Shown here: positions 7,762-22,549 of the stretch, one piece after another
Layout: each line of letters begins with the position of its first letter
How positions within the stretch are numbered: the stretch's first letter is position 1
NCBI GenBank assembly: GCA_951406725.2
Contig: OX597822.1
Span: 23,684,001 to 23,748,000 of the forward strand
From: Octopus vulgaris
Lineage: Eukaryota
Direction: 5' to 3'
DNA length: 64,000 bases
Notes under the pieces: generated by a model
Databases searched by the model: none
What the model saw: only the letters and a program-made list of their open reading frames with translations
What the model was told of the DNA's origin: nothing
Translations under genes and position numbers: made by a program

Positions 7762-8614
7762 CAAGGTGCATTCCAGAAGTGTTGAAACTTTTTTAAAAAG
7801 AGGCAGTTATAACTGTTGTAGAATTTTGTAATTTTAGCATATCATTACTATGCATCTAATAAGCTGACCTGCCACCTTTTGTAATTCCAGATTGAAGGAG
7901 AGGGCTTTAACAGCACTTTGATCACGCTCTACTAAACACTACTTGTTAGAGCTGACGAGTTCGCAGAATGCAGTCGTAATGTGAAGACGTTTTTTCAAAC
8001 TCACTAAACAACGAAGTTTTGTGTAAAATTGGGGGAAAAACGCTACAGCAACTTATCAAGCGCTCCAGACTGCTACGGATTAACTTGTACGAACCGAACA
8101 TCTGTTTTTCGCCGGCACAAGAGGTCAAGCAAAGCATGTGCACCAGGAAGGTTATGCTGATCCTCCCCTACTTTTGTACTGCAAGGGCAGCATCCATCTA
8201 CAGGGTTCCCTCTGGCCAGACGGCCAACAATAAGAACGGAGAACTTTGTCGAGGATTGGAAGAAATTCAGGAAGTGATTTCGTCGCAAAAGGCCAGAGTA
8301 CCTTCACCAAGACAATGCCCCACTCCGCAGTTCCATCCTGGTAAACGACTTGTCAGAGGTGGGCTTCAAATCTGTTCCTTATCTGCCCCCCTACAGTCCA
8401 TACATTGCTCCCTTGACATTTGGAGGTGAAGAAGAAGGAGGCTGTAACAAGGGTCCTGGATGCATTCACTTAAGAGGATTTCCATGGGGCCTTCACAAAG
8501 TGGCTGGAGCGCTAGCTACAACACATACCTTGAAGTTAGGGATTCCCGCTTTGAAAACTAAATATTGTACTTTCTCACCTGAAAACATTCTCAGAACTTC
8601 TAGAATCTACATAG
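7762..8614 (+). mobile_element. Decayed, internally deleted mariner (Tc1/mariner) transposon
   Basis: Broken frames read FCV/CKIGGK.., RQSMCTRKVMLI, HQDNAP and PPYSPYIAP (mariner YSPDLAP motif). Imperfect TIRs: caaggtgcattccagaagt / acttctagaatctacatag. Confidence 0.75.
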
Positions 8615-9049
8615 TATAAATCTCTCTCTCTCTCTCTCTATTGTGTGTCTCCCTCTTTGTGTGTTTCTCTTTGTCTCTCGCTCTCTCTCTCTCTCTGCAT
8701 ATGTATATACATATACACGCATGTAAATTATTATATTAAAGAGCTATAAATATGTGTGCGTATGTTTGTTTGTGCGTGTGTGTGTGTGTGTCTGTCTGTC
8801 TGTCTGCGCGTGTGTGTATTTGTACATAGGGAAAATGGCTTTTCTTTTAGACATGATATATTGAAAACACAACTATGTTGTAATTTGTTATTTTTCATTA
8901 GGGTCTCTTCGTATCATGGTATTAGAGTTTTATAGTTCGTTCAGCATATTACAGTTCCCCAAATCAATTTTGTCTGCGTTTTCAAGCTGTCTCAGTGTCA
9001 TCTTCAGGATGTGATGAGTGTTTTCTGAAACCACTGAATACAACTGCAC

Positions 9050-9651
9050 TACATGGAAAGCCCGTGCTGCAACTACTAATAACATCAATCGCCAAAGAAT
9101 ATAAATAGTACTCATAAGTGGAAAAGCACGGATAAATATACTTCCAGAAGGAGGGAAAAGGACATAAGGCCATCCCTTCAAATAAAATATACGAGACAGA
9201 CGAAATATGGAAGGGATATTGGGAGCTGGCCGTGAATTTGGAAAGGCTGTTAATATTTCCACTCATAAAAAACTTAATTCTATAGAACACAGAACGGAAA
9301 ATTGGAATTTTGCTGGCGCTGACAGTGCCATGGGAAGAGAACGTCGCTAATGCAGAGCAACGGAAGGAGAAGAGATATGAAAAATTAATCGAAGAGTGCA
9401 GAGAACAGGGATGGACTGTCGAGTATTACCACCTGGCAGTGGAGGCTAGAGGCTTCATTGAAAAGAAAATGGTGACGTTATTTAAAAGAAGGCCTGCATT
9501 TTTGAGCTCAGAACTGAGAAAAGTAATAAGGAGGATACAGGAGGCAGTGGAAAAAGTCAGCTTCTATATATGGCTGAAACGAGAAGACCCAAAATGGCTC
9601 GAAAGCTATAACATGCCGACTGGCTGGCTGACACTTAAGCAGCATCACTGA
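9050..9651 (+). pseudogene. C-terminal restriction-like endonuclease of a HERO-like non-LTR retrotransposon (degenerate)
   Basis: WELAVNLERLLIFP...LTVPWEENVANAEQRKEKRYEKLIEECREQGW..VEARGF matches the HERO-type ELTVPWEE/K..KY/VEVGCRGF pattern; the PD motif appears deleted. Confidence 0.7.
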
Positions 9652-9916
9652 TTGACAGGTGGGCCAAGGTAGCGGTCTGGTTCATACCGCCCCCTCTCCT
9701 CCTGGTTCAAAGGCTTGTACCATCAGCTTTGGCTGCTGGAATTGAAACTAACAGGACACTGTTGGAAGGCAGGCTTAGAGAGGGCGCGGGCTAAAACTAC
9801 GCGCCCTTCCCCTCCATTGGTCAGTACAAGCCTATACAGTGTCACGTGACAGTTAGCGGCGAGTAGTTAAAGGGAAATTTGGCAGGATGGTCAGTCATCC
9901 GCTGATATTCGTTACA

Positions 9917-10150
9917 AGGCGGCGAGCTGGCAGAAACGTTAGCACGCCGGGCGAAATGCGTAGCCGTATTTCGTCTGCCGCTACGTTCTGAGTTCAAATT
10001 TCACCGAGGTCGACATTGCCTTTCATCCTTTCGGGGTCGATAAATTAAGTACCAGTTACGCACTGGGGTCGATGTAATCGACTTAATCCGTTTGTCTGTC
10101 CTTGTTTGTCCCCTCTATGTTTAGCCCCTTGTGGGTAGTAAAGAAATAGA
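9917..10150 (+). mobile_element. Full-length family A SINE with target-site duplication
   Basis: Near-consensus copy; gatattcgtt occurs on both sides (9904-9913 and 10149-10158). Confidence 0.9.
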
Positions 10151-10226
10151 TATTCGTTGACGCTGCATCGAAGAAACTAAAGAACAGAAGAAAAGGGAGA
10201 AAGAATAAATGCACTCAACACCAGAG

Positions 10227-10370
10227 CTGAAGACTCCTCTGAAAGGGAGGACGTCGAAAACGGTATAGGAGTAGGGGCCGAAACCGGGCGTGGTTCCTCA
10301 TGATGATGACTTTAGCCATTGGATCCTATAAAGGAGCTGTTGAGGTAGCGAACTACGAAACGTGGTTGGA
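10227..10370 (+). ncRNA. Cluster of degenerate hammerhead-ribozyme-like motifs in the putative HERO 3' region
   Basis: Boxes CTGAAGA (10227), ATGATGA (10300), CTGTTGA (10337) and GAAA (10256, 10280, 10357); stem II gtag-cgaa-ctac; stem tcct-ataa-agga. Confidence 0.45.
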
Positions 10371-11886
10371 ATTCCTGTACTGGCTCTTTTTTTATAGAGG
10401 GCAGTTTATGTTTACACAAATTTACGGCCATAATTCTGTTCATGCAGACTTGCTAGCTAGAATTCAACCGTTATAACGTTGGGGTTCTGCGTCATCGGGC
10501 CACAATTAACATACAGACGACATACATACTTCACGATCAAGATAAACACGTCAACGTTGACATGTAGCTCTAACGTCCAAACATTACAGATCTTATGACC
10601 TGTAACCTTAACGCTCAAATGGTCAAATTCTGGTTGTAAAATGCATCATTTTACTTTCTCTCTCTCTTGCTCTGTCTGTCTGTCTGTCTGTCTCTCTCAC
10701 ACACACACACACACACTCACTTACTCACTCACTCACTCATTCACTCACCCGCTCTCTTTCTCACTCTCTCTTTCTCTGTCTGTCTGTCTCCCTCTTTCTT
10801 TCTCTGTCTCACACTCACTCACTCTCTCTCTTTGTCTATCTGTCTCTCTCCATGACTCTCTCTCTCTCTGTCTATCTCTGTCTATCTATCTGTCTCTCTC
10901 ACTTACTCTCTCTTTCTCCTTGTCTCTCTCCCTTCCTCTCTCTTTTATTTTTCATGCATCAGTGATTCAATTACTTGATTTCCAGTCAAGATAAAAACAA
11001 CAAACAAACAAAGCAGCACACACTATATCGCTCGCGAAACGTATATCGAACTCTCATAACTACCGTATTTTAAAGTCAATCGAAGATATAAATGATTCAC
11101 TCTCATCAGTTATTCATTACAACCTTTAGTTTCCTCAACTCTGAATAGACGAAAGAAGACAAAGTCGTCTTTAGTAGCGAAATGTGAACTCAGAAACGCA
11201 TGGTTCCTCCCAGCTACATACCTCTGTGCCAAGTGGAGCGAACCGCTTTTTACACAGAGCAATATCTAAAAGCTTCATTTACAGCTAAAGATTAACAGAT
11301 CAATTTTTATTTTTTATATTTTTACTTTATCAGATTAGCATTGGGAGGATGTCTTGTTCTTACGTGCGTTATAAGGAAGTGACTAAAACGTCATTGGCAA
11401 CGAAAGTTATTGAATTTGACGAAATGAAATCAAAGAAACACAGCCTTAGGTTAAAGAATACTTTAGATATATTAATTTCCGTACTAACTGCTTTTCACGC
11501 CTAAACGGAGTTAAATGATGCTTGATACAGAAGGAAGTATGGATGGAAGTCAAACAAAAGTTCGTAATGTCTTGTGTGCAAGAACACAGCTTTTGTTGCT
11601 GATGCAGCTCAGAATCTTAAGCACCTAGCAACGCTGTTAGTTAGAATCGTGTCTTCGCTAATTCTAACATGCATCCATTAATCCAGAACATTCTACTTTC
11701 AATCTATCTCCGCTCCGTGTCCTCGTCTTTATTCTGGCGCGCGGACATGATTTATTCGGATGGATTCGATTCACCTACCTACATTCTGGGGTGGGGGGAA
11801 AACGCAGGACTTCCCGTACATATAAAACTTTTAAATAGAAACCTCCCTGTACACACACGATTACTCACGTACGCACGCGCGCACAC

Positions 11887-21730: not shown

Positions 21731-22549
21731 GAAACAAACAGTCACATACACACATACACATAGTAACTCCGATTACGTATCTGATGAATGTATATGTGTA
21801 AGTCGCACCAACCAGTTTCCAGAACCATCGATGTAGGCTTCACTTATTACTGCGCATGAAGAATGGAACCGCTGCTTGCTGGAAATAGGTAAAACACCCT
21901 CACATCATACCTGAATGGCAAACCAAAGAGAGAACGTCTGCTACACGATTATTTGAAATGCTAGAAATAGTAGTCAAATCTTTCCTAGTTTACATCTTAC
22001 TCTATTAAAAACGGACGTGTTGGATAATATGACTAGGGGTCCTTCCCCTTGCAAGTATATTAGCTTGATACTCGGTGAAAGGAGAGTTTAACGTTGGTAA
22101 ACCTCTCAGTCTTATCATTAAAGGTGCGAAACTGAGTAATACAATCTGGTTGATAACTGATGAAGGATTAGGGACCTTCTGTGTTAGTTTTCGGTCCGTT
22201 CGTGTACTCAATATACGTTATACGTTTTCTATTTGTCATTTGTGCATTTACAATATTTTTTTTTCATTGGTTAAGAGGCACAGGAGTTCGGGTTCAGTCT
22301 TTCTTCGCGGCAACTTGGACAAATGTGTTGTTTTATTATAGCCCGGGCCGACCAGGGCCTTATGAGTGAATTTGGTGGACGAAAACTGAGGAAACCCTTC
22401 ATGAGTGTGCGCGCACGTGGGTGTGTTTGTGTTTGTGTGTGTGTGTGCGCGCGTGCGCGCGTGGGACGCCACACTTGGTTGGCAATTATATGTTTGTTAT
22501 AATTGTTATTGTTTTAATACGATGTCATATATCAACAGAAAATAACTAT

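Follow-up and report, generated by a model that had tools for sequence, protein, structure and literature searches.

A HERO-like element in the window

Positions 9027-10377 of the window (the whole 64,000-nt stretch of Octopus vulgaris DNA analysed here) correspond to a 5'-truncated and decayed copy of a HERO-like non-LTR retrotransposon, whose family is abundant in this genome (Table 1). The ORF fragment at its 5' end joins the endonuclease region across an internal deletion, and the 3' UTR is split by a later insertion flanked by a 10-bp duplication (9904-9913 and 10149-10158). This insertion is putatively SINE-like; the repeat has 18 further matches inside the window, and ARAGORN found no tRNA in it. 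Short frames are also present at 7980-8619, which we take to resemble remnants of a mariner transposase.

A search of the 2.8 Gb genome with the window tail gave 741 candidates, of which 40 were scored (82-88% identical), and the decayed C-terminal ORF piece upstream of the tail gave 3808; the same tail was reached by 27 of 29 ORF-anchored loci. A longer copy of the family holds a 746-residue frame that includes the reverse transcriptase (RT) domain. The ORF combines this RT with a CCHC knuckle and a C-terminal restriction-like endonuclease, these last two motifs being read by eye; a Pfam search of the ORF returned no endonuclease match. The best solved structure matches of the RT are R2 proteins, then LINE-1, and its motif strings, compared by eye, fit the rows HERO-1_BF, HEROTn and HERO-1_SP far better than those of R4, R5 and Utopia. 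Because its RT motifs match named HERO rows and its best solved relatives are R2 proteins, the element likely belongs to the HERO clade, as judged from these motif strings. It shows neither the GIY-YIG endonuclease nor the RT type of Penelope-like elements. The first-pass annotation had placed the segment in a HERO-like element, and the genome copies, the ORF-anchored loci and the RT motifs bear this out.

For more distant relatives, we aligned 47 of the 120 homologues listed and used them as query; 80 metagenome loci were fetched out of 330 matches. In viral contigs, a short query found no relatives and an alignment query gave a single weak RT match. Four runs guessed to be RNA contain the element, as contigs only, and no ends are visible in them.

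Table 1. Features of the HERO-like copy and of the second repeat family in the window (window positions)
Position	Strand	Feature	Evidence
9027..9104	+	ORF fragment (unit 2238-2315), 5' end of the truncated copy	blastn 94%, tblastn
9109..9651	+	Decayed C-terminal restriction-like endonuclease region of the ORF; open frame 9286-9651	ORF list, genome search, blastn/tblastn
9652..10377	+	Element 3' UTR, split by another repeat	Comparison with genome copies
9914..10148	+	Later SINE-like insertion in the 3' UTR (label inferred)	Genome copies, BLAST
10226..10235	+	5' strand of extra stem A, including the CTGAAGA box	29-copy comparison, covariation
10236..10250	+	Extra hairpin B, whose loop contains GAAA	29-copy comparison, covariation
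10251..10255	+	Helix P4, 5' strand, remnant	29-copy comparison, covariation
10261..10265	+	3' strand of stem III with the GUA triplet; cut predicted after 10265	Sequence, conservation
10266..10271	+	Stem I, 5' strand, first base mutated	29-copy comparison
10274..10279	+	Stem II, 3' strand	Covariation
10280..10286	+	Catalytic GAAA and stem III, 5' strand	29-copy comparison, covariation
10287..10294	+	Helix P4, 3' strand; connects stem II to stem I at their outer ends	Covariation
10294..10299	+	Stem I, 3' strand	29-copy comparison, covariation
10300..10306	+	CUGAUGA box, C3 mutated to A	29-copy comparison
10307..10316	+	Extra stem A, 3' strand, directly after A9	Covariation, MAFFT alignment, RNAalifold
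10324..10335	+	Small hairpin 3' of the ribozyme, not a hammerhead stem	29-copy comparison, folding
10351..10377	+	Terminal hairpin and fixed 3' end of inserted copies; putative reverse-transcription start	29-copy comparison, folding
22095..22275	+	Second repeat family, 5'-truncated copy; cut after 22111, GAAA 22128, CUGAUGA 22157	Full descriptor, genome copies

The split hammerhead core and its helices

The 3' UTR of the window copy had been described in the first-pass annotation as a cluster of three hammerhead-type boxes of each kind. The boxes are indeed present: there is one exact CTGANGA (10227), three TGANGA (10228, 10301, 10304) and four GAAA (10241, 10256, 10280, 10357), and at least three TGANGA-type plus at least three GAAA boxes occur in only 2 of the 888 144-nt tiles of the window. 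However, only one of each kind is catalytic, and they form a single core made of GUA 10263-65, GAAA 10280 and CUGAUGA 10300. The box at 10227 is a strand of an extra helix, stem A; GAAA 10241 and 10357 are hairpin loops and GAAA 10256 is a linker; the box at 10304 was created by a private T-to-A change at 10309 (T in 27/29 other copies).

Comparison with the other genome copies confirmed that the unusual strand order is conserved, and exposed the private letters of the window copy. The order cut-site/GAAA/CUGANGA is present in the sequence and conserved among distant relatives, as is stem III (cgGTA 10261-65 with GAAAccg 10280-86), which also covaries. Stem I, proposed as tagga/ttcct, exists and covaries across families, but its first pair is broken in this copy (T10266, where 28/29 copies have G) and its register is AGGAG 10267-71 with TTCCT 10294-98. 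The second, type III-like unit that had been suggested does not survive: its gtag/ctac stem needs a private C-to-T at 10354 (C in 28/29 copies), and the region consists of a small hairpin and the terminal hairpin. C3 is also lost (A10300, C in 26/29 copies), and an eight-column deletion, falling between 10250 and 10251, has taken out the 5' strand of stem II together with the beginning of helix P4. Lacking C3, the opening pair of stem I and the 5' strand of stem II, the ribozyme of the window copy is probably inactive. Single-sequence folding of this copy is unremarkable (z -1.57), and Rfam returned no ribozyme match in the window segment or in five loci with intact motifs.

In the relatives, a descriptor holding only the core and stems I and III, with any block order allowed, detected cut-site/GAAA/CUGANGA in 23 of the 37 3' regions, where shuffled sequences gave 0.08; types I-III and the other block orders appeared in at most 1/37. 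Fold statistics were computed on 30 non-redundant rows, leaving out seven near-duplicates, L163 (its box was misassigned by the descriptor), the window copy and L010. All 30 rows carry the core bases CUGANGA, GAAA and UH, for which they were selected by the descriptor; the window copy departs from them at C3.

We tried the canonical SGC register for stem II and rejected it: the first pair forms in 2/30 rows (p=0.38), and 43.9% of positions are paired against 44.6% in shuffled sequences. The true 5' strand of stem II is a run of five bases lying 19-25 nt upstream of the cut and pairing with the strand before GAAA. Its five positions are paired in 30, 28, 29, 29 and 26 of 30 rows, and its first pair, G10.1-C11.1, is G-C in 29/30; the descriptor did not select for this stem. 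This partner upstream of the cut was absent from the earlier reading, as were two extra helices bridging A9 and G10.1. One of these is stem A, formed between a more distant upstream strand and the bases that follow A9, with pairing from the very first of them; its first three positions are paired in 29, 30 and 30 of 30 rows with six pair types. The other, hairpin B, fills the gap between stem A and G10.1 with no spare bases in most rows. A further helix, P4, starts after stem II and finds its partner just before stem I; it is paired over at least 4 bp in all 30 rows and, of the six helices, has the lowest pairing on the MAFFT alignment (74.6%). Each row's own partner pairs better than partners taken from other families in the case of stem II, stem A and P4 (p 5e-5 each).

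In that alignment of 31 rows, 87.0% of the cells in the six helices are paired, against 60.3% when shuffled and 33-42% when slid, and in 24 of the 28 pairs both partners vary. These covariation figures are not probabilities, because the ends of the aligned segments were set from anchors chosen after the structure was seen, which favours stem A, and because the rows are related. Unprompted, RNAalifold predicted stems A, B and III. Covariation of stems I and III across distant families, which had been proposed as a check, was found. A dimeric fold, which together with a knotted one had been named as a requirement of the reversed order, is unnecessary.

A full descriptor, written after the structure was known, matched 32 of 38 ORF ends, the other six being without a match, and gave no match in controls totalling 0.49 Mb (0 in 192,450 nt of ORF interior, 0 in 299,322 nt of reverse strand). 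When no base was prescribed at positions 3 and 8, C3-G8 was found in 31 of the 32 matches and U3-A8 in one. The latter belongs to one relative family with a UUGACAA core (L167 and, by eye, L163); the U3-A8 compensatory pair is known in natural hammerheads, as described in the portions consulted of PMC3088659. The motif spans the whole RT tree (30/34 rows), over RTs 37-62% identical to that of the window family, and the four rows lacking it are scattered; L197 and L209 were left out of this tree for their short RT match. Taken together, the alignments make it almost certain that the fold is a real, conserved hammerhead variant of HERO-like retrotransposons.

Stems I, II and III flank the core, with A15.1-U16.1 and G10.1-C11.1, as in other hammerheads. 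What is lacking is the three-way junction in which A9 is linked to N10.1, two helices being placed between A9 and G10.1. The full strand order is A5'-hairpin B-II5'-P4 5'-III3'-UH-I5'-II3'-GAAA-III5'-P4 3'-I3'-CUGANGA-A3'. As read from the aligned strands, the cyclic order is reversed as it is in types SGC and CSG, with the chain open inside block C. We infer that a four-way junction replaces the A9-G10.1 bond, with A and B stacked together and stem II on the core.

The closest known fold is type SGC (HRIMA-1 and variants), described together with CSG (Eckert et al., 2023; PMC10085705). In the portions consulted of that paper, SGC shares with the HERO fold the reversed cyclic block order, the core bases, the short linker between stems I and II, and a helix joining these stems, which is P4 in HERO. 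There, however, CUGANGA is assumed to be contiguous with the stem II strand (block C); the HERO fold breaks this register, its stem II 5' strand lying upstream of the cut and the gap being bridged by two helices. The SGC and CSG examples, in the same portions, come from IMG/M contigs and one bacterium, with no retrotransposon host named. It is the text of PMC10085705 that sets the HERO fold apart from SGC; overlap with its alignment files is possible.

Neither this wiring nor any HERO ribozyme is described in the literature searched, a scope outside which subscription journals and Repbase Reports lie. The open A9-G10.1 link has no precedent in the portions consulted of PMC10085705, PMC4640811, PMC3088659, PMC7229834, PMC13708176, PMC8557442, PMC13580325, PMC7650587 and bioRxiv 10.64898/2026.07.22.740005. 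A working rule is broken here: CUGANGA need not be contiguous with stem II. Descriptor and Rfam searches would therefore miss the hammerhead class, which is abundant in animal genomes; one 20-mer of the class has 1414 exact copies in this genome. An open link spanned by a four-way junction would, in addition, give ribozyme engineers a new site for attachments.

Terminal redundancy and the copying of the element

The complete unit is 3916 nt long, and its predicted cut lies about 112-113 nt before the 3' end. Among the 40 loci that contain the start of the 5' UTR, 35 are directly and seamlessly preceded by the element's own 3' end; of the remaining five, one has an insertion between the 3' end and the 5' UTR and four start further in. 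After merging seven segmental duplicates, 29 independent redundant copies were retained, whose upstream extensions run from about 17 to 1015 nt. The cut is passed in 23 of them, and not one of the 29 extensions stops at it.

Repeats paired within one locus resemble each other more closely than repeats drawn from separate loci do (n=10, p=0.0008), and they share more rare alleles (9 vs 4.0, p=0.008). In L105 and L112, one deletion junction is repeated exactly in both rounds, and nearly so in L114. Comparison of the genomic repeats shows that both repeats of a locus come from a single template. One template read for more than one round is the simplest account of the seamless head-to-tail junctions, the repeated deletions and the likeness of the repeats, and deletions repeated in this way are as expected from a circular or end-joined RNA. 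Among near-complete relatives, 17/31 wrap or repeat at unit length, although most of these show only cyclic assembly or short assembler overlaps. L202 has 1680 nt redundant at 99.9% identity between unrelated flanks. Clear target-site duplications are few among 14 loci (L130, possibly L120).

Internally deleted mini-elements of about 360-980 nt (L087, L098, L099, L105, L112, L114) contain the ribozyme region in both repeats.

These observations may be brought together in one route. The fold would cut the RNA of terminally redundant copies, two cuts releasing one unit. Stems A, II, P4 and III span the cut, so that they would hold the two ends of the cleaved unit together for joining, either by the host RtcB or by self-ligation, on the analogy of retrozymes. 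Reverse transcription would then be primed internally, at a fixed site about 112 nt past the cut, and continue for more than one round. That the fold cleaves RNA is likely; that one unit is cut out of the RNA, has its ends joined and serves as template for more than one round of reverse transcription is the account we favour, with more reserve.

Cleavage might instead make the 3' end of the element RNA, as the first-pass annotation proposed, and the cut does fall in the 3' UTR: 31 of 32 descriptor matches place it 33-237 nt beyond the ORF match. The 29 other copies fetched nevertheless end near window position 10376-77, about 112 nt downstream of the cut, and L202 ends 554 nt downstream of it. 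A cut about 113 nt upstream of the end of inserted copies does not make that end, and we regard 3'-end processing as extremely improbable. Hardly more credible is a fold that serves as a non-catalytic scaffold bound by an element protein. The lack of precedent for the open A9-G10.1 link in the compared portions of the literature would suit such a scaffold, as would the state of stem II in this genome: a flush stem of at least 4 bp is found in 29 of 81 matched copies, and the stem is degenerate in the other 52. Few copies keep it intact because its 5' strand sits in a G/C tract (window 10246-10251) that is far more variable than its flanks and in the majority of loci is not even shared by both repeats. 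Against a scaffold, all catalytic bases, the UH triplet and the U3-A8 swap are kept across RTs of 37-62% identity, and the fold recurs in a second repeat family.

Two further explanations accept a ribozyme and dispute what follows. R2 reverse transcriptase is capable of end-to-end template jumping. The cut unit could stay linear, with the helices clamping its ends and the reverse transcriptase jumping precisely across the cut. This predicts the same genomic pattern, and eight truncated copies start within -2..+1 of the cut. Such starts are not enriched, however: 3-4 are found at -7..-5, 5 at +5..+7 and 0 at +24..+26, and with sensitivities estimated from base composition the excess is not significant (p 0.34-0.42 against adjacent windows, 0.09 against all three). 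Moreover, the bases around the cut (10261-66) are conserved like their neighbours, in 27-28 of 29 copies, with no added bases. We consider a linear jump unlikely. Somewhat less likely still is that uncut linear transcripts longer than one unit arise from partial-tandem DNA, as proposed for the pseudo-LTRs of Penelope elements, the ribozyme being limited to trimming or regulating other transcripts. Penelope-like elements do form partial tandems, according to the portions consulted of PMC8557442; variants shared between the two repeats are predicted here too, and the short TCC-type stutters seen by eye at many 3' ends resemble a real RNA end, as an uncut transcript would have. By eye, there is no excess of 3' ends running on into the bases that follow in the unit. 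Yet redundancy could only shrink at each round under this explanation, the extensions have no fixed upstream limit (about 17-1015 nt), and the loci examined included no two-unit array that could act as source. Several results also weigh against cutting, end-joining and repeated reading of one unit: starts that are not enriched at the cut, a degenerate stem II in most copies of this genome, stuttered 3' ends without run-on, the scarcity of clear target-site duplications and the six ORF ends lacking a match. It stays our preferred reading, although either of these two explanations would leave similar traces.

The system offers a test of whether a LINE can be copied from circular RNA by internal priming, a question it shares with Penelope elements and retrozymes, and the boundaries of HERO consensus sequences may be circularly permuted.

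Several known systems share parts of this route, as far as the consulted portions of their descriptions go. In non-LTR retrozymes, hammerhead tandem repeats are cut to monomers and circularised, and their RNAs can be ligated by RtcB in vitro (Cervera and de la Pena, 2020; PMC7229834); these are non-autonomous, 170-400 nt long and carry type I hammerheads, whereas the HERO-like element is 3.9 kb long and encodes an RT and a restriction-like endonuclease. Penelope-like pseudo-LTR elements likewise form partial tandems, with a truncated copy before a full copy and a hammerhead in the repeat, but have a GIY-YIG endonuclease, an RT of a different clade and minimal type I hammerheads (PMC8557442); LINEs lack terminal repeats according to the same source. 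R2, whose proteins are the nearest solved RT structures, likewise involves ribozyme processing of a read-through transcript, but it uses a 5' HDV-like ribozyme, a linear template and a fixed rDNA target, unlike the HERO-like element (PMC13708176, PMC7650587).

A second repeat family with the same fold

The full descriptor also found a second repeat family in the window, with 898 candidates in the genome, 40 of them scored; its loci include L262-L286. It forms the same six helices in different letters, and apart from one bulged position the helices are paired in 10-14 of 14 longer copies at each position. BLAST found no match between it and the HERO family. The unit is about 680 nt long (681 nt), with 132 codons as its longest stop-free frame; no ORF was found, nor any HERO profile match inside the unit. 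Copies lie head to tail in L270, L275, L278 and L284, and inverted pieces of the family lie beside L270, L275 and L277.

The layout of a retrozyme, a non-coding tandem unit with a hammerhead, is found in this second family and not in the coding main element, so the former is the closer of the two to the retrozymes of PMC7229834, in the portions consulted; from its sequence, it looks like a retrozyme. We see the broadest reading as evenly balanced: that a whole clade of autonomous LINE-type retrotransposons multiplies through circular RNA produced by a split-core hammerhead, the four helices across the cut clamping the ends for ligation, with the same fold used by non-coding retrozyme-like repeats of the same genome.

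In L279, L282 and L283, which form a duplicated cluster, truncated copies of the second family are preceded, at a distance of about 380-420 nt, by a fragment of a HERO-like endonuclease. Elsewhere, in L181, one HERO-like unit is followed head to tail by a different one (68% identical), and both carry a ribozyme of their own; this arrangement could be a chimera of the assembly. Parts of the ribozyme region also make up local tandem repeats of about 90 nt in L224/L225 and L260/L261.
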